This document shows positions 1-64,000 of a DNA stretch of 64,000 nt, in pieces. How positions within the stretch are numbered: the stretch's first letter is position 1; every line of letters begins with the position of its first letter. The DNA is taken from sequence record PP337211; one strand, written 5' to 3'. The position numbers were made by a program, and so were the translations under genes. The notes beneath the pieces are model-generated. The model was not told where the DNA came from. It searched no databases and was given only the letters and a program-made list of their open reading frames with translations. The stretch comes from Escherichia phage ERS-1.

Positions 1-950
1 GACCTGGATGATGATGTCCGTCTGGCTTCCTGTGCCTCTACGCCGTCCTTGGTCTGGTCTCGCGGAGGAGCCCTGAATCTGCGGTTGGTCCCTTGTGGTT
101 CTTGCCCGTTCTCCCGTCCTCGTCCTTCGGGAAGTGGTGCGGCGACCGCTCGGTGTCGTGACGTAGCCGGCGGCCTTCGCCCGGGCTTCGGCCTTTGCCG
201 CTTCTCGATGCAAACGGCCTTGTGGTCGAAGGTGTCCGGGAGGGCCTGACCCTCCGGCCCCGCGGCCTCGAACCTCCGCGCCCCTTCCGCGACCTGGCGC
301 TGACCCTCCGGGCTGTTCGTGAACGGCCGGAAGCGGGGGCGTGCGGGCGGCCATCGGTCGGGAGCCCGAGCTTGCGCTCCTCCCCTCGCCCGCCTGTCCC
401 GGTAGGACCTGCCGGTAGATTTCCTTGGCGTCCTTGCGCTTGATCCCCGCCTGTCCGCCATCATCCGGTGGTTGTCGGTGTTCGGGTCGTTGCGGACTGT
501 CCCGGGCTTCGATTGTGGACCTGCCCTGCTGGTGCCCGTTTGGTCTTTGCCGGGTGGCGTAGTGGACCGCCTTGCGCGGCTCCTGCTGGCTGTAGTCGTT
601 GGACGCCCTGTGTTGGCCTTCCTCCGGGAGGTAGATGGCCCGCCGCGGCGGCGAACTCTTCCCCAGCCGGTCGCTGCTGGAGGTTCGGGTGTTCGCTGGA
701 CTGTCGCCCGTAGGCAGGCGCCGCGGTCCCGTCGCTTTCGTCTCTTCCCTTCCGGCGGCGGAGCTGGTCGAACGTCCCGTGGAGGCGCCGTTCGCCATGT
801 GGTCCGGGACGGACTGGCGAAGGTCGTGCGCCTTGTTTGCCTTCCGGCGCGTTCGAGGAGGCTCTGCCTCGGGTGGCTGATTGAGCCCTGGCTCCTTGTC
901 GATGTTGGGCTTGCCCTGGGAGGTTGTTCGGCTTGATGCCGATGTGTTCG
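1..950 (-). pseudogene. Frame-disrupted paralog of the small-gene cluster at 43,456-44,300; runs off the window edge
   Basis: Track ORFs 195..443(+) and 43874..44089(-) give near-identical off-frame peptides (…VEGV[R/Q]EGLTLRPRGLEPPRPFRD…); 461..1336(-) 'LRRRKGRDESDGT' matches 43493..43939(+) 'LRRRKDDESDGT'. Hand alignment shows substitutions plus indels. Confidence 0.35.
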
Positions 951-959
951 AGGGCGGGG

Positions 960-1790
960 GCGATCACCTCTGGCTTCCCGGTACGCTGCGGTGATCCGGT
1001 GGCCGGTGATCGACCGGACTTGGGCGTGGGCCTCCGTCTCCTTCTCCGCGCCGGGCTGGTCGGTTGTCCTGGCGGTCGCGTCGATTGCACGCCCCGGCGG
1101 CGAAGGCCCGTGAGGATCGGGGCAGGCCGGACTCCCTGGTGCAGGTTGCCCCGGGTCCTGCCGGACCTCCCGCTCCTGACGGCGGAGGATGTTGGGTGCG
1201 CGTGTCCTCCTCCGCGCACTTCCCGAGGCCTTGGCCGGAGGTCCCGGTTGCCCTTCTTCGGGCAATCCTGTACCACCGCGGCGGCGCGTGCTTCGTCCTT
1301 GCCGTGGAAGCCCCACCGCTCCGCGATAGCTTGCATGCTGTAGCCGTCGTGGAGTTTGGCAGTTGCGGGTCTGCGATCTGGATGTCACGGAAGTAGCGGA
1401 CCCGCTCCAACTCGAGTGCCGTCCCCGGCGAGGAAGTCCGTTGGTGCCAGGTTGGCCTCCCAGGTCGCCGGTGAGCACCTTTGCCGGGCGCGGAGGTAGG
1501 CCGGTACGCCCTCCGGCCGGTAGGTTGCCCCCGCCTTCGCGTCCGATGGGGAGTACCCGCCCGGGCCGTCCTCGATTGCGAAGCTGATGCCGGTGATGTA
1601 GCTGTTCGGCGACGGCCCGCCCCGGCCCCGAGCTCTCGAGGTCCGGTCCCCGCGTTCCTGCCGATGGCGACCCGCTCGGCCCTCCCACCAGGGAGGGTGC
1701 TGAGGTCCGGGGCCTCCCTGTCGCTGGAGACGGTCGTGAACAGGGTGGTTGGAGGTATGAGGCTTGGCTCCCACCTCCGCAATCATCTTG
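960..1790 (-). CDS. Hypothetical protein, frame-disrupted (segments …TTLFTTVSSDREAPDL…, …SYITGISFAIEDGPGGYSPSDAKAGATYRPEGVPAYLRA…, …LELERVRYFRDIQIADPQL…)
   Basis: High-GC3, protein-like segments on the minus strand in three successive frames, each displaced by -1. Confidence 0.3.
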
Positions 1791-4700
1791 CGCGAGGTTC
1801 AGGTGCCGCGGTCTGGCTCCGGGTCGGACTCCCGGAAGGTGAGGATGTGGACCGCTTCGGCTCCGTCCTCCGTCCTGCCCGTTCGCGGCGGCGAAGGCGT
1901 CCGGCATGACGACGGGGCGGAGCGGGGCGAGGACCCCGTTGCGGGCGCCGGACCCTCTCCCGTAGTGGATCGCCTTCTCGGAGGTCCTGGCGCGGGTCCT
2001 CGTGCTCTTGCGGTTGCGGGTCGCGCACTGGTCGCGCGGCCTTCGGTGTAGCGGAGGCCGTTGGTTCCTCCCAGCTCCTGTGTTGGACGGGCGAGCGGCA
2101 GCGCTCATCCGTCCTTGCTTTTCGTTTTGTCCTAACTCTCTTCCTTTGGTTTTGCAGCCGGAGCGTCTGCTGGCGGTAGTAATACCGGGAACCCCGCCTC
2201 CCCGTCGGTGTTGTATGGACCTTGCGGAGGTGCGCGAGTTCTTCCGTGTCGAAGGCGTAGAACTTCTGCTGCGGGCTCCTGCCGGTTGCTGGCCTCTCCA
2301 GTTGTTCGCGCACCACCTCCTCGAGAAGTCCGAGAGACGGCGATGCGGCTGGCGCTTCGCTGCCCGCAAGGGCGCACGGGTTCGGACTTCGGCCCCGCTC
2401 TCCCGTCACCGTCTTGCCTCTCCGGACGGCGCGACCGCTTCGTTGCCCGTGCTCCTCCCGGCGCTGCCCTGGTCGAGGGCGTCCGCGGCCTTTGCTGTCC
2501 TCCTCGTCGGGAGAAGGCCCGGGAGGTGCCTGGTCGCCTGTCGCGGCGTTCCGCGGCCTCCGTGCCCTTCCCCAGTTCGGGTGGTTCGCTCTCGCCGGGG
2601 CCGGCAATGTCGCCTGGCGGAACGCTCCGCGCAGTCGTGCCGCTTGGACCGCCTTGACAGGTTCGGCGACGGGTGCGGGTGGAAGGAGGCTCGACGCCGT
2701 AGCTGCGCTGGGCGATGTTGTACTGACCGTGGTGCGGGACGATGTGGTCCGGTGGACCGTCCCGGCCTCCCGGGTCGCGGCGATCCGGGCGGAGCGGCGG
2801 ACGGCGCGGCGGTTGGCTCCTCCGCCTCGCGCTCCTCGTCATGAATCTTGCTTCCCTGGCTTCCCTTCGTCCGCGTCTCCTCCCTGCCGCGCCGTCGTCA
2901 TTGCCTGGGCCTCGCGGGCCTCGAAGGCGGCGCGGCGGCGTTGATCCGTTTCCTTCCCCGGCCGTCTTCCCGTCGGTGGCGGCGACGTTCTCCGCTCGCC
3001 CCGGGCGGCGTCGAAGCGGAGGGGTTGGACGCTTGAAAGCCTTGTGGGCCTTGAGGTTGGGATTGCTCGCGGCGGAAGAAGGGTTGCGGAAGCCGTCGGC
3101 GTCCGGCTCGCCGGTGCCCGGCTCCTGGTCGCCTTCCTGCCGGTCCGTGGAGGCTTGAAGCGGAAGGGCTCCGCGATCCCGGCGGCGTAGGGGTCGGGCG
3201 TTCCTTCCCGGGGTGTTGGGTTGGCGGCGAGGTCCGCGAGCGGGCGACCTTGCCCAGTACCCTCATCGGCGTGGAAGTTGGCGCTGACTTGGCGGTAGAT
3301 GCCTTGTTGGCCCGAGGTCCGGCGACGTCGGCGGAGGTAGCTGAAGTGGACCGCGTTGGCCCCTGTAGGCTCCCCGGGTCCCGTCGTCGGAGCGGTTGGT
3401 GCGGTCATGTCCGGCCGACCGTCGTGATCTGGAAGATGGCCTGAAGGTTGGCAGGGGAGGTCCTTGCCTTGGCGGCCTGGTCCGCGTCCGCGCTCCTGTC
3501 CAGGACCTGGCGGTGGTCATCGCGGTTCGCCTTCGGGCGGCGATGATCTTGGGCAGTGGTCCTCGAAGAAGTGCTGGCGCCCTGCGGAAGCCGTAGGCCC
3601 CGTGGAAGGTCCTGCCGTCGTCCAGTAGCTGCGCTTGCGACCGGCGAAGCGGGGCGCGCATTCCGCGTCATTGCGTCTGCCCAGCATCCAGAGGCTTTCC
3701 ATCAGGTGGAAGAAGGGGTTGGCGTCCCGTTCTGCCCGGCGCGCTCCGCCGGCGGAGGCGCCGGTGGCGACGGGTTCCGGGCGTCAAGCGGGGCCGTTGC
3801 GCGAGTCGCGGCGGACGCCCTCGAAGGACCTGTCGAGAGGGCCTCCCGGGAGGGCCTGTTGTACGTTGCGGGCTTTGATGACTTTGTCTGTTAATTTGAA
3901 GATGACGTTGCCGGTCCGGCGAAGGACGCGGAAGCGGTTTGCGGGTGGTGCCCCGTTAAGCCGGCGTTCGGTTCGCGGATCGGGGGCGATAGCCCGGGAC
4001 GGCGATTTTAACCGCGAAGGGGCGGGCGAACTGCTCCGCCTCGGCCCGGTTTCATTGTTTCTGACCGTGGTGACGGAGTTCGTGACGGCCTCCGCGGAGG
4101 ACTTCGCCTTGGACTTCTCCGCGTCCGCTCGTCCCGGGCCTCTTCTAGGTGTCGGTGGTGGCTGTGGGCGCTTGGCGTGGTGTACCGGCGTTGTACTCGT
4201 GGGACTTGGCGATGCGGCGGCGCTCCCCGAGGTCGCGCGTGCGAAGCGTTGGCCCTCGAACTGGACCTTGACGTCGCCGTGGTCGGCAAGAAGCCGTCCG
4301 GCGCCTGCCCTTCCCGCTTGCGGAGCGGTTCCGGGTAGATGTCGTTGTACACGGCGTCCCCAGGGTGAACTTCTCCGCCTCCCTGGGCTTTTTTCGCGGG
4401 CCTCGAAGGCGTGCTGAGGACCCCTTGCCGCTCGCGGATGTAATTGGACCCGGCACCTGCCCGAACCTGGCCTCCAGTTCGTCGATGCCGCCGGAATGGT
4501 CCGGCGGCGAGGTTTCGATCCGGCGAGGGTGGTTGCCTTGCGCCGTGGTGCTCCAGCGGGTTTCTTGCCTTCGTCGGTGGTGCGCTTGCTCGTCGAACTT
4601 GGCGTGTGTTCGATGTCCCGGGCCTCGAACCGCGGCCCCCGCGCGGGCTCCCGAGCTGCGGCGGTCCGAAGGTTTCGTCGAAGCCCCGGGCGTCCGTGTT

Positions 4701-5332
4701 GGCTTGGCTTCGGCTCGATCAGTTTCCGCGTTCGTCTGCTCCGGGCGGGGCTTCGCGGCGAGGTCGTGCCCTGCTGGCGGTCGAGCCCGCGGATCGCCCC
4801 GGCAGGGCGTTGGCCGGTTCCGTGACGTCCTGGGCGTCGTGGTAGCGGGTGTGGCGGAGGTCGGTCACCGTTGCCCGGACGGCCCCCGCCGACCAGCGGT
4901 GCTGCTGGAATTTGGCCCTGCGCTTTCGAGGGTCGGAACCCGCGGAACCTTGGGGCTGCACTTGGCGGGCTCCGCGTCGCGCGCCCGTTCCTCGCGGTCC
5001 TCCCGGTACGGCCCGGCAATCTCCGCGATGTAGCGGTGCTTGGTCCGCTGTACCCTCCTTGGAGGGGTCGGACTCCGCGCGGATCGTGAGGCTCCGGGCG
5101 CCGCCTTGTTGCCCGCGGCGGCGTAGTCCTCCGGCGCTTCGCCGCTTCGCGGGCTCGAGTCCTCCCCTTTGCCGGGTTCCCGGCTCCGCCTTGTCCTGGA
5201 GAGCGGAGGGTGTCGGCTGTTGATGTAGCGGGCGATGGTGAGGGCGGGTCTTGTAAGGTGCGGGTGGTCCGCGTAGGGCTTGCGGATGTTCTCCTGGTCC
5301 TGGTCGTCCCGGGTTGGCTTCGCGGCAAGATG

Positions 5333-6003
5333 TTAGGGTACTGCCGCCCTCGCGAACCGGGTCCGCGGTCCGGGGCCGGGCTTCCCGGCCTTGCGGTCGG
5401 TAGACGTCGTGCCGGGCCCTTGAAGGCGGCGATGTCGTCGACGCGTGGGTGGTCGGTTCGGGGTCCTGGTCGGGCTCTCGATGACGGCCTTGATGTCCTT
5501 CGGGGCCGTCTCCCTGTGGATGTCGCGGACCGTCTCGCCGTCCGCCGTGGCCTCTCGCCGGACCCGGGCGATGGTGCGGTGCTTGTCGGCCTCTGGTTCT
5601 CCTCGACGGGCTTCCCGCCGTCGCGCTCCTGGATGTGCTTTGGGCTTCCAGCGGCGTGTCCTGAAGGCCGGGTTGTTCCGCCGTTCGCCTTCGACCCCTG
5701 CGCGTATGTAGATGGGCACTGACACCTCGCGCCCTCCAGCCCTACCGCCTTCACGTCCGGGCCCCGCCAACCAGCTCCGCGACGGCCTTGGCCGCGGCTT
5801 GGGTCTTGATCCGGTCCGGACCGGCGGTGGTCGCTCCGGCGGCGGCGGGGGTAGTCCCCGATGATGGCGATGCCGCCCGGCGCGTCGCCGGGATCGGCTT
5901 GTGGTCCGGGACGATGACGTCGATGACGTGGCCTGCGGATCGCGGTCCTGGCTGCGGGTGTGGTCTTGCCGGAGCCGTTACTGCCCTGCGTGATGTACTT
6001 CAT
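5333..6003 (-). CDS. P-loop NTPase with N-terminal Walker A (MKYITQGSNGSGKTT), kinase-like layout; 3' extent uncertain, frame-disrupted
   Basis: ATG at 6003 preceded by GGAGA 8 nt upstream on the minus strand; GxxGxGKTT motif; frame shifts -1 about 30 nt after the motif (…GHVIDVIVPDHKPI…). Confidence 0.35.
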
Positions 6004-6314
6004 CTTGGGTTCTCCACCGGTTGAAAACGGCGGAGCCGGAGCCCCGCCTGGTTGCTGTTGGTTGCGTGATCGGGATGATCTTGCGCTCGCCGCCGTCCTC
6101 CTCCGGCGGGTCTGGTTCCACGATCTTCTTGAAGTCGGGCGAGCGGCCTTCGCCGCTCCGGCTGGTTCCGAACCGGCGGGCTTGCCCTTCGTCCGCTGTC
6201 CGCGCGGTGGAGACCTGCCGGTGGGGCGCGTCCCTTGACCTCCTGGAAGGGCTGGCCCGTCGGTCCGGTGAAGGTTCGGCACGCGCTGGCCGTGGCCGGT
6301 CTGCGGTGATCATT

Positions 6315-7448
6315 TCACGCCTTCCAAAGCCAGTGCCGGCTCCGCCGGCTCCGGGCTTCCCGCGGCGGGTCCAGGCGTCGCGTAGGTCGGTTGCCGTGCT
6401 CGTCGCCAGTTCCGGTACCTGGCCGGTGGGCTTCGACCCGGCACGGCTCCGCGATGGTCTTTTCGGGCTCCGGCCTGGTTCTCCGCGGGCTGTCGGCCAA
6501 GGCTTTGGTACGCTCCGGTCCGAACCGCTTTGGAGGCGTTCGATCATTGCCGGGGCCCGCTGTAGCCCGCCTCCCGAATTTTCGGCGATTGTGGTCGTTG
6601 CCGACCGCGGCCTGGTGCTCCAGCGTGTGGCGGATGTCGTCGTGGGTGACGATCCCCGGGATCTGCGGATTGACCTGAATGGAGGTGTAGATGCCCTGAC
6701 GGCGCTCGGCCATTTCGTCAGATGGTCCTGAAGGCTGATGGCCCCGGCAGGCCGTGCCGTTGTGGTCGTTGCCGGTGTTCTGTGACTTCTGGGCGTAGCT
6801 GTAGGGGTTCCGCTTCGGGTGCCCATGGCCCGTGACGGTAGCCGAGACGGCTGGAAAGAAGATGGTGCCGGGCTCCCGAAGGCTTCCGCCCCCGCCGGGC
6901 GTTATGGGCGCCGTCCCGGTTGGGAAGGGGTCCGTGAAGCTGGAGAAGTAGCCCGCGGCGGAGGTCCGGGACTTCGAGAGGGTTTGCGGACCTGCTCGCC
7001 GGAGTTCGCCGGGACGCCGATGAGGCCGGTGCCGCGGTAGCCCCGGAACCCGCTGTCGACGTAGCAGGCGCGTGCCGCCTGTAGCCCTGGAGGTTCGTTG
7101 ATCGCCTCGCTGAAGGGGCGGGCGCGGGAGCCTCGCTCGTCGTTGCGCTTGTCCTGGTACCTGCCCTGAAGGGGCTTGGCGTTCGGGATGCGGATGTGCG
7201 GGAGGTAGGTGACGTCGTTTGAAGCGGCAGGCCCTCCACCTCCTTCTTGTCGTCGTCCTTCGCGTCGCGGACCTTCCCCTCTGCCCTTGCCGGAACTTCG
7301 CGCGGCTGGTCCTGTGGGTTTCCTTCTCCCCCATCGGGTCCTGGAACTCCCGTTGGTTCGGTCCGGCGGGCGAAGACTTGTAAGCCTCCTGCAGCGGCTT
7401 CGCCGGTTCTTCTGTCCTTGCCGCGTGGTCGGTGCCATTCTCCTTCAA
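6315..7448 (-). CDS. Hypothetical protein, frame-disrupted ([24 protein letters not shown]… / …[24 protein letters not shown]… / …[27 protein letters not shown]…)
   Basis: TTG start at 7448 as in the ORF track; four consecutive high-GC3 segments each shifted by -1; CTTTACTTCTTCCGG motif 22 nt upstream. Confidence 0.4.
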
Positions 7449-7469
7449 CTGTGAAAGTCAGCGCCTTAC

Positions 7470-7484
7470 CCGGAAGAAGTAAAG
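7470..7484 (-). promoter_or_regulatory. Recurrent intergenic motif CTTTACTTCTTCCGG (coding-strand sense)
   Basis: Plus strand reads ccggaagaagtaaag; lies just upstream of the gene starting at 7448. Confidence 0.4.
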
Positions 7485-9811
7485 CGGCGTTAATTCGGCC
7501 CGGCTCGCCCGTCGCTTCCGGGCGGCTCCCCTGGCCTTCGTCTCCTCCGAACGCCGGCGACCGGCGAACTGCCCGGAACCGTGCGGCGACCCTTCCGCGT
7601 CGGGTCGTCTGGTTGTCCTTTTGGGACCCGAGGGTGAACGCTTGGGGTTGACGGTGGCGGTCGGTCGCTGTGAACCTGGCGTCACCGCTGTCGGGGATCG
7701 GCAATTGTTCGAAGGGCTCGAGGATAGCCGATTCCTGCCGCTTGTAGTCGATGTTGGCGTGTACCGTGCTGAAGTACCTGGAGCAGGTCGGGTCCTGTGC
7801 TCCCGTCTCCGGGTCCTCCTTACAGCGGGCGTTTAGGTGAGCCGGTCCGTCACGGTTACCGATGTTCGGGCGATGGGGCGTGGATGGACGGAAGCCTGTC
7901 GAGCGGGTCGCTGCGTTTCGGCTTTTGGGACGGTAACGGGTTGGGGAACGGGGCGGAGGCGTCCCGGGCCGCGTCCGCGTACCCGTAGCCCTCGTCCGGA
8001 TGGGTCGATCCGGTTGCCCGGTCCGGCCCGCGGCCTTCTCGATGTACTCCCGGCTGGCGTCCTGGCTCCGCAGATCCGCTTGTGGAGGATGACGTCGTAG
8101 TTGCGGAGGCTCGCCTCCTCCAAGCCCTCGAGTGCCCGGCGGCGACCGTCCCCCGAGCCGACACCGATGACCGGGTCCCGGCAGTCCGGGAGGTGCGGGG
8201 CGGTGCGGACGGCCTCCGCGGCGTTCTCCGTGATCGACTCCGGGAGCTTGGGGCGTTGGCTGTAGCTGTCGTGGTAGTTCTCCTGGTGCTCTGGCCGGAC
8301 GGGCGATCGCGGAGCGGCCCGCCGGGATGTCCAGGTCCGCCCCGAGCTGGCGAGCGTGCTGCTGTTGGACGCGCGGGCGTCCGCGGCCCCGTCGCGCTTG
8401 AAGCGGGGCCCGTAGTTCGCTTGCACCCGTTCCCCAGCTGCTGGCGTAGGCGACCGCCCTGCCCGCCTTCGAGCGGCACGTGTCCGGCTGCCGATGGTGG
8501 TTCTTCTGCTGGTCTCGATATGGGCGAGGCCCCGTGAATCTCGCTGAAGGACGGACCCGGAGCGCCCTGCTCTCCCGCTTCAGGATCGGCACCCCGTCAG
8601 CTGGTGTTCGACCGGGGCGTCGTTGACGATTGTTGCTGCTCTTGGGCGTGGTCGAGGAAGGCCCGTGCGGCGGAGGCGGCCTGCCTCGGTCGAGCCCGCC
8701 GTCGATTTCCCGGATGTCGTTCCGGGTGGGAGCTGGCCCTTCGCGGGATTTTCCGGTTTGCCGCCGCACCGTCTCCACCTTCTGGATGTTCGGCGGGCGG
8801 TTGCCGGGTGGGGCGAGGTCCGCGAACTGCCGGTTTGTAAGTCCGCGACCCTGGGCGATCGCCTCGCGCTTGGGCTTCGCGTTCTCCGGGTACTCGTGAG
8901 CCTCGCGCCGCTCCGCCGTCGCGGCCTTCTCCGGTCCTTGAAGCGAAGACGGCGGCGTTGTCCGAGTCCGCCGGCATCTCGACCGGTTCCGGCTTGTCGC
9001 GATCTTGAAGCTGATCGGGACTGAAGCCGTTGTGCTCCTGGGCGCGGGCGGAGACGGTGCGGAAGGGGCGCTCCTCCTCCGTCGCCCGGGCTCCCCGGTG
9101 GGTGCCCCGCCTCCCGGGCGGTCGCCGAGCGGGCCTGGAGGGAGGTCCCGCAGTCGGCGGTGCGACCCTGGCCTGTAGCGGCGGCGCTCGCGTCCCCGGA
9201 GGCCTGTGACCCCCGGCGGGCGTCTCCTCCTCGTGGTGGGCCGCGACGTCCCTTTGCGGAACCTCGCCCTCCTTCTCCAGGAAGGAGGCGACCCCGGCGT
9301 GGAGTAGCTCCAGGTTGAGGCTAGCCTGTGGGCGGGTGGAGAAGTCCCCCGCCTGCCCGCGCCGAACCAGGGCCGTGCACACGGGGTCGGATCGCGGTGG
9401 TGATCCGGTGTCGGCCGGGAACGTCTCGATGTCCGGTTGGGGCAAGTTTCTGCCGTGTCTTTTCTCTGGTATGCGTGACCGATTTTCCCGCTCGTGTCCT
9501 TGCACATGTCCGGTTGGGTAATTGGCGACTGAAGGAAGGCTCCGTGCGGACTTCTTCGTTGACGTGAATACGGGATGGACCGTCTGCCCTTGCCGTCGCC
9601 GTCCTCCGTGATCCGGGTGAATCCCGCAGGTAGCTTGAGGGCTCCCTTCTGTATCCCCGCTCCGCCGGGCACCTCCGGCGGAGGGTAGCCGCGTGCGCTC
9701 CGAGGCTCCCAGTGGCCTTGCCCTGCTTGGGCTGGCGGGCTACCGGCGGGCGTCCTGCCTTCGGCGGACTTCTGCGGCTCGTGGGCCGGGATCGCGTGGC
9801 CTTCCGGGACC

Positions 9812-14065: not shown

Positions 14066-14082
14066 GACCGTTCTCCGTTTCT

Positions 14083-54260: not shown

Positions 54261-54712
54261 ACCTGGCCCGTGCCGGAGGGGTTCACCGCGTGACGGAAGG
54301 CGAACCGCCGCTGCCGGGAGTGCGGGCGAGGTCGGCGCAGCGGGTCGGAGGTCGGCCGGGCGGTACCGGATCGCCGCGGACCGCGCCTTGACCTGGGCGA
54401 ACCCCGCGACCCCTATCAATTCCGCCGATGGCCCGCCGGAAACCCCGCCGCGGGGAGTACGTCTGCCGCGGGGCCTATCCGGTTCCCGCACCGCTTCGCA
54501 GGCGGTCGCTGCTCGGGCTACTTCATCGCCGTGGAGCAGCGGAGTTGGCACTAGGGGACCGGCGACTGCCGCCTACTGTAACTGCCTCAACCGGACGGAG
54601 GCCGTGCCCACTGCGAAGTGGTGGAGGGCGGCGAGTCGGTCCAGGAATGCCCCGTGTGGCAAGAGTTTGTACGATTCAATGAGATCAAACTGAAGAAGGA
54701 GAAGTGAGATGA

Positions 54713-55030: not shown

Positions 55031-57244
55031 CGTTGCCATCTAGGGTTACTATCGCCGGCGGGCGTCCCGATCCCCTGGCATACTCCGCGCTGATGCTGAC
55101 ACCCGAACCGTGTATGACCTGGCGAAGGAGCGGGGCTGGTCGAAGCCGGAGGGGGAACGGGGCCGTTCTGCCGCCTGGAGGACTGCCGCTGCCGTACCCT
55201 TGCCGTCCATCAGCGCCCTGAACGTCCTCCGGGGCAGCCTGAAGGAGAACCCGGTAATTGGCTGACGAATCGACTTGAAGGATGGAATTCCCTTCCCCCC
55301 TTGCGGACCGCGAAGTGGCCCGGATCGCGGAGGAGGCGGCGACACACCGCCCGGGAGCCGGCGACTGTGACCTGTGTGGCGAATGGAGCGGGAGGCTGGT
55401 GGAGGAGTCTGTGCGCCCTGTCGGACCGCCCGGGCTTTGCCGGTGAATCGAAGAAGTTGTATGAGGGCTCTACTTCTTGCAGGCCCCCCGCCACTCTCCT
55501 TCGTTGCAGGTACCGGCCTGAAAATGGAGAACGGCGATGACCTGGATTTCCGCCTCCAACCCGACACCCGCGCCACTGCCCCGCTTCGTGGCCGGTTTCA
55601 CTGTCCTCGCCTCTGGCGGTAGCCCTCCGCGACCCTCGGCTACGCCTTCAGCCGCTAGAGCGTGGTTCCTGGCCTGGTCCGGCGACTCTGCATGGCATGC
55701 TGGAGGATGTACCGTGAAGGACGTGTACTGGAACCTGGCCCACTACCCCCGTCTGGAAGGCTCGGGTGCCCCCGCCCTCGCCCTCCGAAGTTCCTGGCGT
55801 CATCCCCGACCGTCGCCCGAATTGAAGCCCTGGGTGGAGTTCCGCGCCCCGAAGGCTGCGCCGGTGGTGAAGGCGGGAGCGCTTCTGCCAGGGGCGCCGG
55901 GTGCCCGCCCCGCGCCCGGGCTGGCCAGTCCTGATGGAGCTGGCAAGCCCTGGTCCGCCGCTGCTCCATGGTCCAGCCCCGCGAAAGTCCGGTCGGCGTA
56001 GGAAGGACGGAACCGATCCTCGCCGGCGAGCGCCTGGGCTCGCCGCGGGCCTTCGACCACCACCCGGGTTGAAGGAGCCCGCGTGTATCTGGAAGGATGA
56101 GCCGCCGCTGGAGGGAAAGGCCCGAGGAAGATGGAAGCGAGTACCAGAAGCGGGAGGGCTCCGGCCCTCCCCCCCGCGGGTCGAAAAAAGTTGTCTGCTG
56201 GGCTGACCTTCTTCGGGTTGGGTCACTTTTTGTTAGGCCGTAGAAATGGAGAACTGAAATCAGCCGACTCCCGCCCAGGTCGCTGCCCGCGAACTGATCG
56301 CAGGCTGGGGCTCGCCTCGCTGGGCGATGTCCGGGTTGTCAAGCCGCTGACCCTCCCGGCCGGAGTACCTCCGCGGCCCGCTCCTTCGCCGGTGACCGCG
56401 CGATCCGCCGGATCGGTGCCGGTCCTCCGCGGGACGTCCCCCTGGCAGCTGATCGGCTTCGGACCTCGCGGAGGTCGCCGGGCCCTCTGGAAGTCGGCTG
56501 CCGTTGACCGGGAGGGCCTGGCTCTCCCCCTCCCGGAGAAGGAGCCCCTTGTGAACCGGTGGCCGCCTTCCCCACCCCCTCCCCTCGTCCCCACTCCTGT
56601 TCATCGGAGTCGGGGAGCTGGGGCTGCTCTTCACCCTCCGCGAGACGGAGCTGAAGGCCGTCCCGGGTCCTGGCCCACGGACGCGGTGGTGAATGGCGTG
56701 TATCGGGGTCCTCCGAGGTCCGTGCTCCCGTGAAGAACCTGAGCCGGGACCGACGAAGCCTTCGAGAAGGCCCGGAAGCCTCTGCAGCGTATGGGCCGAG
56801 CCGGTGACCTCCCGCGACTCCCTGCGCGAGGAAATGAACGCGATTCACCGCGTGACGCTGCGGAGCTGGAGCGCCGGGAGCGCGAGCGGAAGGAGCGCGA
56901 GGACCGCCTGGGCCGCGGAACGGGCCGCGGAGGAGGAGGAGAAGCGCCTGTACCTTCCTGGGCTGGAAGTTTGCCTTCGGACCTACGCGTGGCGAGTTCC
57001 CAGGCCCCGCGGGCTGGCCTCCGCCGGTCGATCCAGCCTCCGGACTTCGAGGAAGGTGGCCTGATGCGCCTGACCGCCCGTGAGGTCGCCCGCCGGGTCC
57101 CTGTCCTCGCCCGCCGAAGCCGAAGCCCGACCTGTACGTGGGCGAGCCGAGAGTGCATCACCTTCGACGTGACCGTGGTGCGCCGTACCCTTGCGCCCGT
57201 GACGCCTGGAACGGCTACGGTATCGAGACGGTCCAGGCGTTGCG

Positions 57245-57603
57245 ATGATCGACCGCGCGACCGGGGCCTGCCTCGTGTCCAAGTCCGGGGCCTTCTACGC
57301 GGAGGAAGGCGAGGAGCTGAAGATCAAGGCCACCGTGAAGGAGCACGCGGAGCACCGCGGCCAGGCCCAGACCGTTGTCCAGCGGGTCGCGGTGCTGGAG
57401 GACTACCGGATGCGCCGGGAACCTCTCAGCTCGCGGTTGTTCGGAGGGCGAGCTGTACGCCGCCTGCACCAGGACCCCCTCACCGGGGCTCTTACGCAGT
57501 GGCCTTTGCCGGAGCCCTCGGGGAGGCCCGGCCGTCGCCCTCGTTGACTGGACTCGCTGAAGTGGACGGGTCACCTGCCCGGGCTTACCGCGTGGGTGAT
57601 TAA
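57245..57603 (+). CDS. Hypothetical protein (MIDRATGACLVSKSGAFYAEEGEELKIKATVKEHAEHRGQAQTVVQRVAVLEDYRMRRE…)
   Basis: ORF 57245..57547; long high-GC3 segment; 3' end uncertain. Confidence 0.4.
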
Positions 57604-57876
57604 GCTTCGCGCTTGGCGGACGCCCTCGTGCGATCCTTCGGAGCTGACCGGGCGTTCCGCGCGTCGGGCGATGAGTTCGCCGTTATGGGTGATAGCCGTG
57701 AACGTCTGCCCGGGCTCGCTTCTCCGCGCGAGGGTCCGGGTTTCTGCTTCGGACGGGGATCGGAGGCGGCGGAGGCGGACGGCGACCTGGCGCGTCGAGG
57801 GGCGGAGGGGGAGCGGTCCGGCCTTCGGGGCCGCGCGAGGGCTCCTCGACCGCCTTGGGGTCGATCATCGACCTCC

Positions 57877-57918
57877 GGGGGGCTTTACTTCTTCGGAGGC
57901 CCCCCGTCACACTTCTTT
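57877..57918 (+). promoter_or_regulatory. Recurrent motif inside a G6/C6 hairpin (GGGGGG-CTTTACTTCTTCGGAGG-CCCCCC), followed by CACACTTCTTTG
   Basis: Stem 57,877-57,882 / 57,900-57,905 with a 17-nt loop carrying the motif; could be a terminator, a promoter element, or both. Confidence 0.4.
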
Positions 57919-58106
57919 GTCGGGCGGTCCGGACCCGGAGAACGGCTGCCGGGGCGGCTGGGCATTTACTGTCTCCCCTGTCCAGGCCACGGACCTGCGC
58001 CTCCAAAGTTCTCCCGACCTTCTTTCGGGCGTGACTTCCTCCGGGTCCAAACGGCCCTGGACCGCCTCCTTAGATGGCGGAGGAGTAGGACGGTGCGCAC
58101 TGGTTC

Positions 58107-58360
58107 ATGTACAAGCTGTCCAACGGTGCGACTGACCTGGCCCCGGCGATCACCGACCGGAAGCTGCGACTGACCGTGGACACCAACGGCTACGGGCGAG
58201 GTCAGCGGAGACGCCGCGGGCCTGATCGCCTGCCTGTTCGTGTCAACGCCCTCGCTGGAATACCCGCAGCGCCAGGACTACGTGGACCTGTCTACAAGCC
58301 GCGCGACTTCGCCTTCGACCGCCGCAGGCTGAGGAAATCACCGCTGCCTTCGACCTGATA
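58107..58360 (+). CDS. Hypothetical protein (MYKLSNGATDLAPAITDRKLRLTVDTNGYG / EVSGDAAGLIACLFVSTPSLEYPQRQDYVDL…)
   Basis: ATG at 58,107; two high-GC3 segments separated by a -1 shift. Confidence 0.35.
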
Positions 58361-60896
58361 CCCTCGGCGCAGCCGACCGCCCCAACTTCCCGGCAAGGAG
58401 CAGATGACCGGTAGACCGCCCCCGGACCAAACCTCCTGCAGGAGACTTTCGTTGGTGTCGCCCCTGACGTGACCGCCCGCCGCGTCCGTCCTGGGCGACT
58501 TCAGGTGCGCCTCGGCGACCGAGTCGATGCCGGCTTCCGTCCTTCGCCCCGGGCGGAAGTCGGACCCGGCGACCCTGAGCTGGAACCCGTTGGCCCGTTC
58601 ACGCTGAAATGGCGACCCCGCAGGGCCTGCACATCCCGGCCGAGGTCCGGCTGGAACATCGCCTTGCCCGCCACTTCGACCGCCTGCTTACGATGGTCGG
58701 TGGACCCCCTCTGTAAGGTAGAAAAGGAGCCCGCGATGGCTGGGCGAGCCACCGCCGTTGGGAGAACCCTCCGTCACCTCCGCGACTGCGCGGAGCCGCG
58801 CACCCCCTGGGCGGATCCGGAAGCCCGCGCCCGGGCGTCCTCCTCCAACTCGCCGTGGAGGCGGCTGGAGGAGGTCGGGTGACGATCACCGCCGCGAGCT
58901 GGACGAAGCCCGAGCAACGCGGGAGGTGAGTGATGAGCGGACGCTACAAGGTCCTGGCCGGGTCCCAGTGCCCGGCCACCGCCGCTCGACTACACCGTGG
59001 TGGATGTCCGGAGCCTTTGCCCGCGGGCGCCTCGGGTGCCGTCGATGCGACTGCGAGACGTTTGGCGAGGAGGAAGCCCTGCGGTTGCCCGCGCCCGAAC
59101 GCGGCGATCGGCGAGTTGAAGTGTACCCTCGCCCGGGCCGCTCGCCTGTTCGAGGAGGCCCTGCCGAAGTCGTGCTGGGCGCCAGCGCCCTGGACGCCGG
59201 CGTGATCCGCTGCTTGGTCAGGTCCCGGCGAAGTCCGCGCGGCCCTGAAGGCTTGCGCCCTTGTGCGGAGGGGAAGTGCCCCGTACGGCCCCGAACCGCC
59301 CCTGGGCGAAGGAGGGCGGAGCATCACCCCCGGGCGCTGACGCCCTGATCCTGAGTTCGTGTCGACCTGGGCGGCTAGGGGTCAAGCGGCTGAAGGACCG
59401 CCGGGCGAAGATCGCCGGCTGTTCGCCCCGGGACGGACGGAAGGCGACCGCCTGGCCCTGTACGTCGCCGGGCGGGCGACCCTCCCGCTTCGACGCGGCC
59501 CGCTGCGCCGGTACGCGCCCGCCGCCCGTTGGACCTCTGCCGCGTGACGACCTAGGTAACGGCTCCGCCCGCGTGGTGCCGAAGTCGTAACGAGACCGGA
59601 GAAGGAGAAGCGGCGAAGCGGGGAATCTACCGCGGCCCGATCCCTGCCCGATTCGGCAGACCTGCGCTGCTGCGCGAGGCGACCCGGCCATGCTCGTGGC
59701 GGTTCGATGACGGAGCCTGACCCGGAGCGGCGACCCGATCCCGGCGGAGAAGCCCGAAGGCCCGCCCGCGGACGCCCTGGGCTACGGCTCGCGCCTTCCC
59801 GGCGGAGGACTTCGAGGAGAACCGGACCTGCCCGACCTGCGAGGCGACCGGCTTTCGGCGGCTCGCGCCGGGTCCTGACCGCTGTACCTTCTGCGACGGG
59901 ACGGCAAGGCGGGAACCCGCCGGAGGAGGACGGCGAGGCTGCCGGGGTGCCCCGCCCGACCGCCCGCGCGCGGTCGGTGACCTCCTCCGTGGGCATGACC
60001 CGCGACGGCTACCGGCTCGCCGGGTGGTTGTCGAGTGCGAGGACGGCGCTGTGGCGAACTCCGCCAGGAACGAAGCCGGGACTGATCCTGGGTCCGGCTC
60101 CCGGTGATCCCGGGAGGTGAACGATGTCCCTGGCTGAGTTCGAGGACCGCGTGGCGGATCCCCTGCCTCATCGTGGTCACCACCGGGAGCCCTGACGTGC
60201 CCGCGAAGTGCTGCGGCCCGCCTGAAGATCGCTACCCGGCGGAAGGCGGATGCGGTGAATGGGAAGTCCGCGACCGCCGCGGACGCCCGCCCCCTGGCCT
60301 GGAGCGGGGTATGACGGAGGCGGAGCGCGAAGCGGTTGACCTGGCCGTGTTCGATCCGTGCGGAGGACCGGCGATGACCTGCGTGCGCGTCCCCGGGGGT
60401 CGCTTGCCGTCGCCCTCTTCCGGCTCCGCCTCGCGGACGGCTCCTGCGCGTCGGAGCCCTGCCACCTGCGGGCTGCCTCTTCCGCGACCGGCGGCTGGCG
60501 TCTTCACACGAGTGGTGGAGGACCCCTGCGATCTGCGCCGCCCTGGACTGGTCCTTCAACGAGGAAAACGGGCCGACCGCCCTCGCCGCGGGATGCCCCG
60601 CCGGGTGGTCCCGCGGTGCCGACTGGTCGAGTCGGAGGCCGAAGGCTGCGGAAAACCGGCGGGCTCCCCCTCCTTCTCCCTTCCACCGGGTGCGCTTGGG
60701 TTACGGGAGTGCGCTTGGGTTCGGCTCCAAAAGTATGAAGGGGTGCGTGGCGGGAAGTTGTAGCCGTCTGGGGTTCCTGCCTTGCGCTTAGGTTACTTGG
60801 GATTCTTACCTGAAACAAATTTGCCCAGGGTTGACCCGGCGGACCGGCCTGAGAATCCTTGTTGAGGCTTCCGGCTGTCCGAGGGCTTCCTGGGGC

Positions 60897-60943
60897 TAAG
60901 GTAAGTAAGTTAAGTAAGTTAAGTATCTATCTATCTATCTATC
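60897..60943. repeat. Compound microsatellite (TAAGT/TAAGTTAAG)n followed by (ATCT)5
   Basis: ctaaggtaagtaagttaagtaagttaagtatctatctatctatctata, in an AT-rich intergenic stretch upstream of the packaging-like operon. Confidence 0.7.
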
Positions 60944-60974
60944 TATAAAGGGCTGTTTTATATGGCCTTTTTGC

Positions 60975-60992
60975 CCGCTTGACTTTTTACTT
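60975..60992 (+). promoter_or_regulatory. Degenerate copy of the recurrent motif (CTTTTTACTTTTTCGG)
   Basis: Sequence similarity to CTTTACTTCTTCGG; about 240 nt upstream of the 61,229 start. Confidence 0.3.
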
Positions 60993-61228
60993 TTTCGGAC
61001 GTGGAAGTGAAGCGCGACCCCTCGAACCTAAGCGGAGGACGCCGCGTGCCTGCTTGGGTCTGTTGCCCGTCGCTCCCGCGCCTCCCCCGCGGGCGAGCGC
61101 GACCCGCCCTTGGCGAACGCAGGCTTCGCCAGACTCGCGGCGAGGATGTCCTTGGGCGTGAGGCCGGGACGGATCGCCGCGTGATGCGCGATTGACGGGC
61201 GGTGCTGCCCAAGGGGGAGGTGATGTGC

Positions 61229-61551
61229 CCATTGAGAAACTGAAGCCGAAGCCGATGGTGCCCTTGCCCTTGGATGGAAGCAGTACCTGGAGTTGTTCCG
61301 CACGTCCCGACCTGGGTGGGTGGAAGTACCGTGCGCGGAGGCGTGGGCGTCTCCGGCTCCGCCGTTCCACTATGCCGTTGAAGAATGACCCGGAGTTTGC
61401 CCTGGCTCTGCAGGACGCCCGCCAAGCGTGGATTGATGAGATCCTGTTGCGCGGCCCTGAAGCGGGCGCGGGACGGCGCGGCAGCGCCCGATCGGTCGGG
61501 GAAGTTCAAGGACGAAATTATTGGATGAGCGGGTGTACTGTGATTCGCTGA
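61229..61551 (+). CDS. Small protein upstream of the P-loop gene, terminase small subunit position (…MPLKNDPEFALALQDARQAWIDEILLRGPEAG…)
   Basis: AAGGGGGAGG SD before GTG at about 61,229; stop TGA 61,549-61,551 overlaps the next ATG (TGATG). Confidence 0.4.
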
Positions 61552-63178
61552 TGGCCTTGACGCTCCGCGCCCGCCGTGCGGAGTTCGGGAGGACGGGAGG
61601 ACGTGGCCTGTATCACTGCCCTCGGCCCGGTGGGCGCCGATCGTCCCGGGCCCCGGCGTCGACCGGACGACTGGGAATTGTTTGGGACCTCGCCCGCGGG
61701 ACCGTGGGCCGTCCGACCGGGAGGGCGATGTTCGCCTGGTCCCAAGCGGGCAGGCGGTTGCCATCGCCGCCCGCCCGGACTACCCGATCGAGCGGCGCGA
61801 GGCGGAGCCCGGCGAGCTGCGGGCACCACGTGGACCCGGAGACGGGAAGGAGTCGGAGGCGACCTGGTGCGGGTACGGGTTGCAGCTCGCCTTCCTCGGC
61901 GTCCCGATCTTCGAGGTGCTGTATGAGGGGACGCGCGGCCCGGGCAAGACCGACTGCCGATGGACTTCCTCCAGCACGTGGGGAAGGGCTACGGTTGGAG
62001 CGGCGGGGTCCCCGTTCCGTCTGGCAGGGACCCCCGCTGTCGGACGTGATCAGACACAAAACCAACAAGTGGTTCAAGCGTTTCTTCCCGGCTAAGTACA
62101 GGCAAGGTGGGTTGGCGACCTTCCCGGCACGGCGAGGAGCTGCTGCTGTGTCGGCGGTCGCCGGAGGATTATTGGAACTACCCACGGCCACGTGCCCGTG
62201 GATTGGCTGGGAAGAACTCTTGGGCTGGGCCTGACAGCGCCACCGTTGCGACGTCCTGCCGCCGCTCCCAAGCCGGGGATGCCCCGCCGCGACCCGGGCG
62301 ACCGGCCCCACGGCCCCGCCCCTGGCTGGGTCAGGCCCGCTCCCGCCTCCCCCGTTGCGCGGTCGGGTGATCCTGGACGCGATGCGAGACGGCGAGCGCG
62401 AACCGCCCCGGGTCGCCTTCCCGGTTCCTTTCCCATGAGAACCGGGTTGCTCCTCGCTGACCCGGAGGGCCTGGTATTCGAGCCGCGGCCCGGAACCCCT
62501 CCGACTCGCCGCCTGGCTCCACGGCTCCTGCAGGTTGTTTGCGGGAGGATGTTGTACGAGGCTTGCACCGCGGGACGCACCGCGGCGCCCTCCGTCCCGC
62601 TGTCGGTGATCCCGAAGCGGTGGAAGATCGACCTGCGGCTTCCACCGGGCCGGAGCCCTTTGCCGTCCTGTGGTGGGCGGAGTCGAATGGGAGCCGTTCG
62701 AGCGGAATGGCCGCGTGTACGGAAGGTGCGGGGGCGATCTGTACCTGATCCTGTAGCGGGTACGGCTGGAACGGGAACGCGAGCAGGGCGTCCTGCGGCT
62801 CGCCTCGGAGGTCGCCCAGTGGGTGAAGGACCGGGAGGAGGATTGGGCGCTGGAAGGTCGGGTCAGCCCTGGCCCCCGCGACCTTCTCCTCACGTGGAGG
62901 TATGGGGCCTGGATTGCTGTGGAGGCGGAGAGAGGGTGTGCGCCTGGACGCCCGCGGGAGGCTGGGCTCGCGGGTGGGCTGGGAGGGGTTGGCTGTCGGA
63001 GGGCGCTGCCTCCGGCGGCGGGGACCGCGCCAGGTCCCTGGGCTGTTCGGTTTTTTCGACCCGTGCTGGTGTCGTCCAGACGGTCCCGCGCTGCCCCGCG
63101 ATGAGGTGTACCTGGGATGACGTGAAGGCGGAGGCGGAGGACCGGTTGGTGACGCGACCGCTACCGCGTGCGGGGTAA
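61551..63178 (+). CDS. P-loop NTPase, terminase large subunit-like (putative), copy B, frame-disrupted
   Basis: ATG at 61,551; Walker A 'YEGTRGPGKTD' at 61,921-61,950; then -1 shifted segments LPMDFLQHVGKGYGWSGGVPVP, LSDVIRHKTNKWFKRFFPAKYRQ, …SVIPKRWKIDLRL…, …VEWEPFERNGRVYGRCGGDLYLIL; sits upstream of the capsid gene by synteny with copy A. Functional call is an inference. Confidence 0.4.
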
Positions 63179-63189
63179 GCTGCGTGGTG

Positions 63190-64000
63190 CGGTGGTGGCC
63201 CGCAGAGGCTCGGCCGGGTCCTCGCCTTCGGGCGAGAATCCGCGAACCTGGAGAACCGACGGCCGGCGAGACGGCAGCCCTGCCGACCTGCGGGGCGTAT
63301 TAACCGCGCTCCCGCGCTGGCCCACGCTCCAGACGCCGCCTGGGCGGGACCGAAGGGCGCGCGAGGCGGGCGAGACGTACCTACCCCGCCCTCGGAGGAG
63401 ACGGCAGGGTGGGCTATCGGGAGCGCCTGGCCTCCGCCGCTCCTCCTCGGCGGTTGAACCTGGGCGCCTGGACCTGCCCTGCAGCGGAGCCCTTTGCCAG
63501 CCGATCAAGCCGGCCAGGACGTGCCCGGAGGCGATCCAGGAGATGATCCTGCCTGACGTGGACCTCCTGGGGCTGCCCACGCGTTCGCCCGTCCTGTGGT
63601 TCCGCCAGCCTATCCGGTGAGGCCCTGGCCTCCTCGTCCAGACCGCCTCGCCCGGCCCCGCGGAGGATGGCCTACCCGGACCTGGCGGATGACCGCCGGG
63701 AGGGCCTGCGCCCTGACTGGGTGATGATCCAAGCCGGAGGCGCCCGCTGTTGGCCCGGTCGGAGGTGATCAAATGGGGCCCGAGTCCTCTGCGTGCTGCT
63801 GTCCAAGTTACGAGGCGGAGGCAGGACGGCTTCGCGCAGGCTTGGGAGCGCTGTCCGCGTCCTGGAGCTGGGCCTTGTCCCGGCTCTGGCAGCCGGTGAG
63901 AAGTTGGTGGTCCCGCAAGGAGGAGTGGGTGCTGGCGGATGAGCGGGCCATGGGGCTGAACCACGTCCCTGTGGTTGCCTTTACGCACCTGAGCTAAACC
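63190..64000 (+). CDS. Hypothetical protein, partial; portal position by synteny; continues past the window
   Basis: Plus-strand high-GC3 segments after the TAA at 63,176-63,178; no motif recognised. Confidence 0.2.

Follow-up and report, generated by a model that had tools for sequence, protein, structure and literature searches.

Thymidine hypermodification of the M6 type yields 5-NedU, a nucleoside of 271 Da, via a 5-hmdU DNA kinase, an AADT, a PLP decarboxylase and an rSAM isomerase (Lee 2018, Lee 2021, Flodman 2019). In M6 itself about 30% of T is replaced by 5-NedU, the sole non-canonical nucleoside seen by LC-MS (PMC5889632), and a TG/TC motif was inferred from the restriction-resistant sites in M6 DNA (PMC6449724). 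A TG motif has also been proposed for the hypermodified T of Pbunavirus phages (PMC12191111). The window analysed here, a stretch of 64,000 nucleotides recorded as Escherichia phage ERS-1 (PP337211), shares collinearity and gene modules with the genus Yuavirus (Mesyanzhinovviridae; M6, YuA, PAE1, AN14, Epa38, PAC9), but its nucleotide identity to other records is no higher than 81-84%, a difference almost all of which is attributable to read noise.

Two technical phenomena are also close to what was found. Like unsplit ('in-silico chimeric') ONT reads, the window has start and end constructs and ligation adapter adjoining one another between inserts of different barcodes, and the error profile is deletion-biased and raw-read-like; its error of about 18% is, however, higher and far more motif-specific than canonical DNA usually gives. 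Nanopore miscalls at methylation sites, such as Dam and Dcm sites in bacterial assemblies, resemble the errors described below in their short motif, strand-specificity and footprint of a few bases, which matches the sensing window of the pore. The effect here is much stronger than at those sites, the central base of a 2-nt motif being miscalled in about 78% of cases. The explanation that very probably accounts for the window as a whole is that of unsplit ONT reads of a Yuavirus phage with TG-centred miscalls that most likely arise from hypermodified T.

Composition of the window

The window is a chain of at least four unpolished and untrimmed ONT reads, all from a single multiplexed run with native barcoding, and no finished genome (Table 1). 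It may have been deposited as a raw read or as an unpolished assembly built from one, and the joining of the parts is most likely due to successive molecules that passed through one pore and were left unsplit. The constructs were located by aligning the flanks AAGGTTAA...CAGCACCT and AGGTGCTG...TTAACCTTAGCAAT around each catalogued 24-nt barcode, with barcode sequences taken from PMC9229804, flank sequences from PMC11984142, and the ligation adapter sequences for start (AATGTACTTCGTTCAGTTACGTATTGCT) and end (GCAATACGTAACTGAACGAAGT) from the Porechop_ABI preprint. Six native-barcode constructs (BC08, BC03 twice, BC02 twice and BC07) and the ligation adapter were found, all within 42,708-43,339, and the rest of the window contained no ONT barcode or adapter construct. 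Local alignment scores of the six were 42-88 against shuffled maxima of 20-28, and wrong barcodes scored at most 34.

Table 1. Location of reads, constructs and selected genes in the window
Feature	Position	Strand	Evidence
Read 1, long and noisy, Yuavirus-like phage	1..42707	-	Collinear with Epa38 8,438-51,775 and beyond; blastn
Thymidine-hypermodification gene cluster, garbled copy	2866..9471	-	Frameshift-aware alignment to Epa38 proteins; PAC9 annotation
Helicase gene, example of the sequence-only reading	12914..14077	-	23 frameshifts against the Epa38 protein (1-nt deletions 6, 2-nt deletions 9, 1-nt insertions 8)
AGGTGCTG-BC08-TTAACCTTAGCAAT native-barcode construct, adjoins read 1	42708..42751	.	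Score 63/92, shuffled maximum 26
Junction J1, garbled adapter-to-adapter, between two reads	42752..42790	.	Direct reading; adapter alignment weak
AAGGTTAA-rc(BC03)-CAGCACCT native-barcode construct	42791..42831	.	Score 56/80, shuffled maximum 22
AT-rich 125-nt insert, own short read	42832..42956	.	BC03 constructs at both ends
AGGTGCTG-BC03-TTAACCTTAGCAAT native-barcode construct	42957..43004	.	Score 66/92, shuffled maximum 20
Junction J2, ONT ligation adapter	42999..43043	.	Plus strand is GCAATACGTAACTGAACCAAGT
AAGGTTAA-rc(BC02)-CAGCACCT native-barcode construct	43044..43078	.	Score 61/80, shuffled maximum 22
T4-like coliphage insert	43079..43225	.	BC02 constructs at both ends; 478 T4-like records at 90-99%
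AGGTGCTG-BC02-TTAACCTTAGCAAT native-barcode construct	43226..43269	.	Score 88/92, shuffled maximum 28
Junction J3, garbled adapter-to-adapter	43270..43304	.	Direct reading and adapter alignment
AAGGTTAA-rc(BC07)-CAGCACCT native-barcode construct, adjoins read 2	43305..43339	.	Score 42/80, shuffled maximum 24
Read 2, long and noisy, same or near-identical Yuavirus-like phage	43340..64000	-	Opposite physical strand to read 1

Two long reads, of about 42.7 kb (read 1, BC08) and at least 20.7 kb (read 2, BC07), make up the phage-derived part and together span the whole phage genome from end to end. In read 1 the phage genes are on the minus strand of the window, the putative read orientation. They are on the plus strand in read 2, which follows Epa38 from 9,408 down to 1 and then from 61,775 down to 49,144. 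The inversion of the second block relative to the first has its sole cause in the reading of the other strand. The only non-phage material consists of adapters, barcodes and the two short inserts of foreign origin, with no host flanking DNA in the window, and a search for phage matches to the AT-rich insert gave none that was significant (best E about 0.3).

Reads 1 and 2 represent the two opposite strands of a Pseudomonas phage of the genus Yuavirus (M6/YuA-like). The classified yuaviruses Epa38 and PAC9 are collinear with nearly the whole window outside the junction at 42.7-43.3 kb, with a few short stretches of phage-derived sequence unaligned to them, and the window carries a hypermodification cluster, DNA polymerase, helicases, RNR, tail and head modules. 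Against these two genomes the window is 81-82% identical with about 7% gap columns, blastn of read 1 giving 80-83%, whereas Epa38 and PAC9 share 96.4% identity (3.6% differ) with 0.33% gap columns. Identity reached a plateau of 82-84% against every relative compared, 38 phage records covered at least 80% of window positions 1-25,000, and in the frame-corrected gene alignments (n = 79) about 70% of residues were identical. With respect to the 95% species-level threshold, the observed 81-84% is capped by read noise.

The two reads overlap at window 112-897 and 40,037-42,336. In these doubly covered regions the mutual identity of the two copies is only 69-75%, below that of either copy to a GenBank phage, with 521 and 525 columns private to one copy and 121 shared. 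The genuine divergence from Epa38, estimated from 3.3 kb of doubly covered regions, is at most about 3.7%. Errors private to each read together with an excess of deletions over insertions give the window the error profile of raw reads.

Broken reading frames and indels

A sequence-only reading of the window had proposed that coding frames break every ~50-150 nt and always by -1. The breaks themselves are seen throughout the window. The phase with the highest GC3 changes 11.6 times in each kb, compared with 2.1 in PAC9, and only 3% of bases lie in same-phase runs of at least 600 nt, against 69% in PAC9. The frameshift-aware protein-to-DNA alignment which that reading had called for returned 1,213 frameshifts over 79 reference gene alignments, with a median spacing of 32 nt or about one per 32-40 nt, and the identical program found 0 frameshifts in the reference DNA. 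In DNA alignment to Epa38, 2,395 of 2,672 indel events were frame-shifting (one in ~25 nt, with a median distance of 18 nt). The breaks are thus more frequent than had been proposed.

Nor is their direction uniform. At the DNA level 1,373 events were equivalent to -1 and 1,022 to +1, at the protein level the numbers were 647 and 566, and successive readable segments (at least 45 nt) were offset by -1, 0 or +1 in 123, 101 and 116 cases. The roughly equal mixture of shifts that would speak against the proposed -1 bias is accordingly present in frame terms, but not in the underlying indels, where 1,998 deletion events stand against 674 insertion events (about 3:1). The DNA-level events comprised 1,128 deletions of 1 nt and 467 of 2 nt, and 500 insertions of 1 nt and 123 of 2 nt; 5.4-5.9% of reference bases were deleted and 1.4-1.7% inserted. 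Homopolymer runs, which had been suggested as a place to look, showed no enrichment of deletions (7.0% at isolated bases, 4.1-7.7% in runs of 2-5).

The helicase example was borne out, since the motifs LTVHKSQGS (~13,051) and YTAITRAAE (12,980) lie about 24 codons apart in different frames of the window and within one ORF in Epa38. So was the warning that six-frame ORF calls cannot be relied on in this sequence. In nature the phage genes are intact, and their shattered appearance comes from base-caller errors of about 18%, among which deletions outnumber insertions by a factor of 3-4. The extreme A/T skew of the window (7,699 A against 12,698 T) and its long stop-free ORFs on the minus strand are the same artefact as the frame breaks. 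The earlier account of the window did not include the centring of errors on a motif as opposed to homopolymers, the chimerism of the window or the artefactual nature of the A/T skew and of the long minus-strand ORFs.

An error footprint centred on TG/CA steps

Read on the minus strand, error was 0.776 at the thymidine of TG, 0.39 at +1 and 0.34 at -1, and fell to 0.067-0.073 at distances of 6 nt or more. The wider context around TG had no influence, with error at 0.70-0.84 throughout. Thymidines outside TG and far from any TG had an error of 0.054-0.069, and T in TC context 0.055. Deletions follow the same pattern in that 61% of deletion events touch 26.5% of bases. The motif, being only 2 nt long, recurs every ~18 nt, and all reading frames are wrecked as a consequence.

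The footprint is strand-specific. Most of the error in excess is non-random and falls on one base of each TG/CA step, which is always on the same strand as seen from the read. At genomic sites shared by the two reads, the block-1 copy had an error of 0.77 at A-of-CA and 0.27 at T-of-TG, and the copy from the opposite strand 0.34 and 0.75, respectively. Error is also raised at the complementary base, which in read orientation is the A of CA (0.27-0.34 against a baseline of about 0.09 in those regions), and this rise is not fully explained.

The T4-like insert serves as an internal control of base-calling. Over its initial 78 nt it agrees with Escherichia phage Pu-Krd-SF5 at every position (78/78). 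Such a perfectly read fragment would be unexpected if its cytosines were glucosyl-hmC.

Genes for thymidine hypermodification

The cluster in read 1 encodes a thymidylate-synthase homologue, a 5-hmdU DNA kinase (helical and kinase domains), a radical-SAM enzyme, a PLP enzyme and an amino acid:DNA transferase. Pfam searches with Epa38 proteins identified Thymidylat_synt, Nmad5, HMUDK_hel, HMUDK_HMUD1, Radical_SAM (weak), PALP and ADDT, and all of these proteins except that with Nmad5 align to the cluster in a frameshift-tolerant manner. The M6-type gene set of a dUMP hydroxymethylase-like thymidylate-synthase homologue, kinase, transferase, PLP and rSAM enzymes is thus present, and both the genus and the gene set are shared with M6.

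TG steps hold 32.8% of T in PAC9, close to the ~30% of T modified in M6, and a TG-containing motif is common to both. A difference is that the published motif, 'TS', comprises TG and TC, whereas the footprint here is confined to TG. The evidence here is indirect, consisting of base-calling errors in two reads of assumed orientation.

Discussion

The miscalls point to thymidine hypermodification, putative in this phage, as their cause. The virion DNA would, as in this phage group, carry hypermodified thymidine (5-NedU in M6), introduced after replication by a phage-encoded 5-hmdU DNA kinase pathway. A base-caller trained on canonical DNA would then turn the modified T into C (29%), delete it (24%) or call it A or G (25%), and about five neighbouring bases on each side would also be disturbed. 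We consider it moderately probable that the noise is a single-molecule footprint of this modification at essentially every T of 5′-TG-3′ on both strands, with an apparent occupancy of at least ~78% and no further context, and that T in TC, TA and TT is unmodified.

Of the two alternatives offered by the sequence-only reading, systematic deletion error in the sequence stands and deletion-biased decay of an old, inactive element falls. Frameshifts fixed as mutations in the duplex DNA of such a (pro)phage would agree with the many frame breaks, the stop-free garbled genes and an excess of deletions like that in bacterial pseudogene decay. A decayed prophage was nevertheless rejected, and its probability is negligible: the window contains synthetic ONT adapters and barcodes, the two blocks make up a whole phage genome that is not embedded in a host chromosome, error falls sharply with distance from a dinucleotide step, and the adjacent T4-like fragment is error-free for 78 nt. 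Moreover, the lesions are private to each copy of the same loci and sit at strand-specific positions, which is impossible for mutations in duplex DNA. Generic raw nanopore noise, from old chemistry, a fast or mismatched model or high G+C and with no role for DNA modification, has in its favour that error against PAC9 remains at 7-10% even at a distance from TG/CA steps, that raw ONT reads are deletion-biased with up to 10-20% error and that high-GC templates are harder to call. It is quite improbable as the whole explanation, since 48% of all errors fall within 1 nt of a TG thymidine, that is on 17% of bases, and a true CA (window orientation) was called correctly in only 15% of cases while error at the A of GA was about 0.10. 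In the T4-like insert 5 CA and 6 TG steps were read correctly within the 78 nt, as was CA in the adapter. We know of no base-caller bias on canonical DNA that abolishes one dinucleotide, which also counts against generic noise.

The remaining question is which base is affected. We infer that the reads run along the minus strand of the window, which would make the T of 5′-TG-3′ the affected base. The start and end constructs of ONT are mutually reverse complementary and leave the orientation unproven, and if the plus strand were the read, the A or C of 5′-CA-3′ would be modified, for example through methylation by phage or host or through some other adduct on adenine. In window orientation the peak error indeed lies on the A of CA (0.71-0.81) with 0.40 at the preceding C, and the symmetry of the adapter constructs permits this reading. 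The minus orientation is modestly supported by the better calling of the putative 'start' constructs and by the adapter at J2, where the bottom strand in plus orientation (42,999-43,025) scores 39/44 and the top-strand start adapter on the minus strand aligns over 27/28 nt (score 44/56). A modified CA is further opposed by the single non-canonical nucleoside of M6, a thymidine derivative at ~30% of T (PMC5889632), a figure matched by the TG share of T, and by an encoded pathway for thymidine modification, with no enzyme for adenine or cytosine modification noted in the annotations. It is therefore unlikely, and the T of TG is the preferred site.

The window is thus raw, chimeric and untrimmed nanopore data in which all ORF calls are artefacts, and no biological reading should be given to its A/T skew, to what looks like a large inversion at ~43 kb, to the T4-like 'insertion' or to the long stop-free ORFs on the minus strand. 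Native DNA of hypermodified phages can give nanopore sequence that resembles a decayed element, and the errors, being systematic, may outlast consensus polishing. At the same time, a footprint of base-calling errors suggests a simple route to reading modification motifs.

For the yuavirus, the footprint points to a strict and testable TpG rule for thymidine hypermodification. If true, such a rule would narrow the TG/TC motif guessed at in the literature on M6-like phages, explain in quantitative terms why ~30% of T is replaced, and direct attention to the specificity of the 5-hmdU DNA kinase. The rule has a bearing on 5-hmdU DNA kinase specificity and on the evasion of restriction and defence.

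Results

The reading frames of this DNA are broken throughout, as the sequence-only reading had claimed; GC3-phase switching (11.6 switches per kb, compared with 2.1 in the Yuavirus reference phage PAC9), indel counts and frameshift-aware alignment all agree, and the example of neighbouring helicase motifs lying in different frames was correct. Compared with the complete genome of the reference phage Epa38 used for alignment (L001+L002), 82-83% of the Epa38 bases matched, 11-13% were mismatched and 5.4-5.9% were deleted, with 1.4-1.7% extra bases inserted. There were 1,998 deletion and 674 insertion events, and 2,395 of all events were frame-shifting, one per ~25 nt. Since gapped HSPs cross frames, tblastn was unusable for frameshift detection, and all Epa38 proteins were instead aligned to the matching window segments by a purpose-written frameshift-aware protein-to-DNA dynamic programme. 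The 79 alignments contained 577 deletions of one nucleotide and 330 of two, 236 insertions of one and 70 of two, at a median spacing of 32 nt, in addition to 513 codon-sized losses and 46 gains. The same aligner found 0 frameshifts on reference DNA. The further assertion that the breaks are always by -1 proved wrong, given a near-even frame mix at the protein level (647 vs 566) and the DNA level (1,373 vs 1,022), and successive readable segments related by -1, 0 and +1 in 123, 101 and 116 cases, respectively. The actual asymmetry is an excess of deletions over insertions of about 3:1.

The window has a G+C content of 68% and aligns collinearly with Yuavirus phages of Pseudomonas, M6/YuA group (Epa38, PAC9, PaSz-9, PAE1, AN14 and others), although megablast against GenBank phages gave an identity of just 81-84% to every matching yuavirus. 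Exact 36-mer matching against viral_contigs and metagenome_contigs gave no hit, and three long ORFs of the window had no identical product on record. Alignment to Epa38 resolved two blocks in opposite orientation, which overlap at both ends and jointly span the entire ~61.8-kb genome (see table). Read 2, which forms the second block, crosses the ends of the Epa38 record without interruption, and it therefore seems that either this GenBank record carries a short terminal redundancy or read 2 came from a concatemeric or circular molecule. The small terminase gene is followed downstream by a large intergenic gap, and read 1 stops within it; since read 2 continues through the same region, the stop need not mark a physical end of the genome. 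Six stretches do not align to Epa38 and/or PAC9 and the tail genes (window 20-28 kb) have a lower identity (0.76); these are probably genuine strain-specific differences on top of the read noise.

Features of the window
Feature	Window position	Orientation	Correspondence or score
Block 1	1-42,336	forward	Epa38 8,438 to 51,775
End of read 1	42,337-42,707		~370 nt past last Epa38 alignment
AGGTGCTG-BC08-TTAACCTTAGCAAT	42,708-42,751		63/92
AAGGTTAA-rcBC03-CAGCACCT	42,791-42,831		56/80
AT-rich insert, 125 nt	42,832-42,956		BC03 constructs on both sides
BC03 end construct	42,957-43,004		66/92
Ligation adapter	42,999-43,025		44/56
BC02 start construct	43,044-43,078		61/80
T4-like coliphage fragment	43,079-43,225		between BC02 constructs
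BC02 end construct	43,226-43,269		88/92
BC07 start construct	43,305-43,339		42/80
Block 2	43,340-63,986	reverse	Epa38 9,408 down to 1, then 61,775 down to 49,144
Match to both record ends	51,587-51,838		first ~250 nt and last ~190 nt of Epa38
Doubly covered pair	112-897 with 43,381-44,190
Doubly covered pair	40,037-42,336 with 61,453-63,769
Stretches without alignment	4,046-4,430; 7,485-7,859; 24,779-25,126; 35,146-35,485; 38,445-39,006; 55,882-56,101		Epa38 and/or PAC9
Long ORFs, examples	6,718-9,672; 3,784-6,282; 31,585-34,143	minus

Oxford Nanopore native-barcoding constructs were seen on reading 42,280-43,420, and their positions were assigned by local alignment, in which shuffled queries scored at most 28 and wrong barcodes at most 34. 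Barcode sequences were verified in PMC9229804 (Table 1), adapter start and end sequences in the Porechop_ABI preprint and barcode flanks in PMC11984142. A search of the rest of the window yielded no adapter-like sequence. The T4-like fragment matches a hypothetical/DUF5499 gene region and over its first 78 nt does not differ from Escherichia phage Pu-Krd-SF5. This accuracy would be unexpected were its cytosines glucosyl-hydroxymethylated, and the BC02 sample may thus have been unmodified or amplified DNA. For the AT-rich insert, a third sample of the run, the best E value in the phage collection was about 0.3, which is not significant. The constructs and the inserts between them show that the window strings together at least four reads of one multiplexed run, namely two long yuavirus reads of opposite strand (BC08 and BC07) and two short foreign reads. 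Since the long reads differ in barcode, two samples of the run held the same or nearly the same phage.

Errors did not rise near T in the window orientation; nearby A mattered instead, which led to the analysis of CA/TG steps. A true CA was called correctly in 15% of cases, with an error of 0.71-0.81 at the A and 0.40 at the C in both blocks, against about 0.10 at the A of GA. The adapters leave the read orientation unfixed since the start and end constructs are mutual reverse complements. At the ligation-adapter junction, however, the minus-strand alignment of the 28-nt top-strand adapter covers 27 nt and extends 5 nt past the end of the 22-nt bottom strand, and the constructs acting as starts under minus-strand reading are the better-called set. 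These observations lend modest support to minus-strand reading, in which case the affected base is the T of 5'-TG-3'.

Error by distance from this thymidine was 0.776 at 0, 0.39 at +1, 0.34 at -1, 0.26 at -2 and 0.21 at +2, and settled at 6 nt or more to 0.067-0.073, a baseline that includes about 3.6% genuine divergence. The thymidine itself was called C in 29%, deleted in 24%, and called T in 22%, A in 15% and G in 10% of cases, and wider sequence context had no effect on its error. Thymidines that were not part of a TG step and lay away from such steps had an error of 0.054-0.069 regardless of the next base. Positions within 1 nt of a TG thymidine, 17% of bases, accounted for 48% of all errors, and bases near TG/CA steps, 26.5% of the total, were touched by 61% of deletion and 56% of frame-shifting events. 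The base-caller has no intrinsic trouble at these steps, since the T4-like insert, with 5 CA and 6 TG steps, was correct at 78/78 positions. In the doubly covered regions the A of CA in read orientation, complementary to the putative modified T, also had a raised error (0.27-0.34 against a baseline of ~0.09), which could be spill-over from adjacent TG sites or could arise if the modified complementary strand affects how the motor steps.

Discussion

The frame breaks are a sequencing artefact and not a real genomic feature. Of the two alternatives offered earlier, decay of an old element or systematic deletion error, it is the latter that holds. The difference between Epa38 and PAC9 is 3.6%, with gaps in 0.33% of columns, while that between the window and either phage is 18-19%, with gaps in about 7%. 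The doubly covered regions are mutually only 69-75% identical, below the identity of either copy to a GenBank phage. In three-way alignments 521 and 525 columns were private to one copy each and just 121 had both copies agreeing against the reference; deletions were likewise largely independent (18 shared, 154 and 120 private). Where the two copies cover the same genomic positions, error at the A of CA was 0.77 in the block-1 copy and 0.34 in the opposite-strand copy, and at the T of TG it was 0.27 and 0.75, a mirror image. Since a mutation in duplex DNA would be visible whichever strand is read, these are strand-specific failures of read-out. Even at positions over 3 nt away from every CA/TG step, private differences from PAC9 amounted to 9-10% in each copy against 1.1% shared identical ones, which places the sequence at the level of raw reads and makes a consensus assembly unlikely.

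Homopolymer slippage, whether of the 454/Ion Torrent type or biological, was considered, and the sequence-only reading had proposed checking whether shifts fall in homopolymer runs. Deleted bases were not enriched in runs and the deletion rate peaked at isolated bases (7.0%), and slippage was rejected. A fold-back (template-complement) read was likewise rejected: block 2 begins at Epa38 9,408 and not at the end of block 1, runs the opposite way round the genome and carries a different barcode. An actual inversion of the genome, combined with insertion of T4-derived DNA at ~43 kb, was also rejected, since the junction consists of adapters and barcodes; both are only apparent and result from read chaining.

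Two further peculiarities are by-products of the miscalling. The base asymmetry of the window (A 7,699 vs T 12,698; AT skew -0.3 to -0.45 over 1-42 kb) has an identical sign in both blocks although these represent opposite genome strands, so that it is a property of the read-out rather than the genome, an artefact of T loss in read orientation. On the minus strand stop codons are depleted 2.5- to 5-fold (5.6-11.5 per kb vs 18-21 per kb in PAC9), TGA most of all, and ORFs of up to 984 aa occur despite a frameshift every ~25-40 nt. These ORFs are spurious and not genes, since the miscalled T of TG depletes the stop codons.

The yuaviruses serve as type group of thymidine hypermodification. About 30% of T in M6 is replaced by 5-(2-aminoethyl)uridine and no other non-canonical nucleoside was seen; the same modification was predicted for YuA, PAE1, AN14 and relatives, with the motif then unknown (PMC5889632). 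Reference genes collinear with window 2.9-9.5 kb hold the whole pathway (Thymidylat_synt, Nmad5, HMUDK_hel, HMUDK_HMUD1, Radical_SAM (weak), PALP and ADDT), and they align to the window when frameshifts are allowed. The TG share of all T in PAC9 is 32.8%, near the published ~30%. Most likely, therefore, native virion DNA was sequenced, with modified TpG thymidines derailing a base-caller trained on canonical DNA, a reading that depends on the read orientation and on chemistry transferred from M6. With TpG steps every ~18 nt per strand and a quarter of them deleted, no reading frame would survive. Our literature search turned up no account of yuavirus DNA being miscalled in nanopore sequencing.

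Sites resistant to restriction led Flodman et al. to infer a TG/TC motif, which they ascribed to the 5-hmdU DNA kinase (PMC6449724), and for the hypermodified T of Pbunavirus phages a TG motif has likewise been put forward (PMC12191111). We consider it more likely than not that the error footprint maps the hypermodification and reveals a strict TpG rule, with nearly full occupancy, on both strands. If true, such a rule would refine the TG/TC proposal of the literature.
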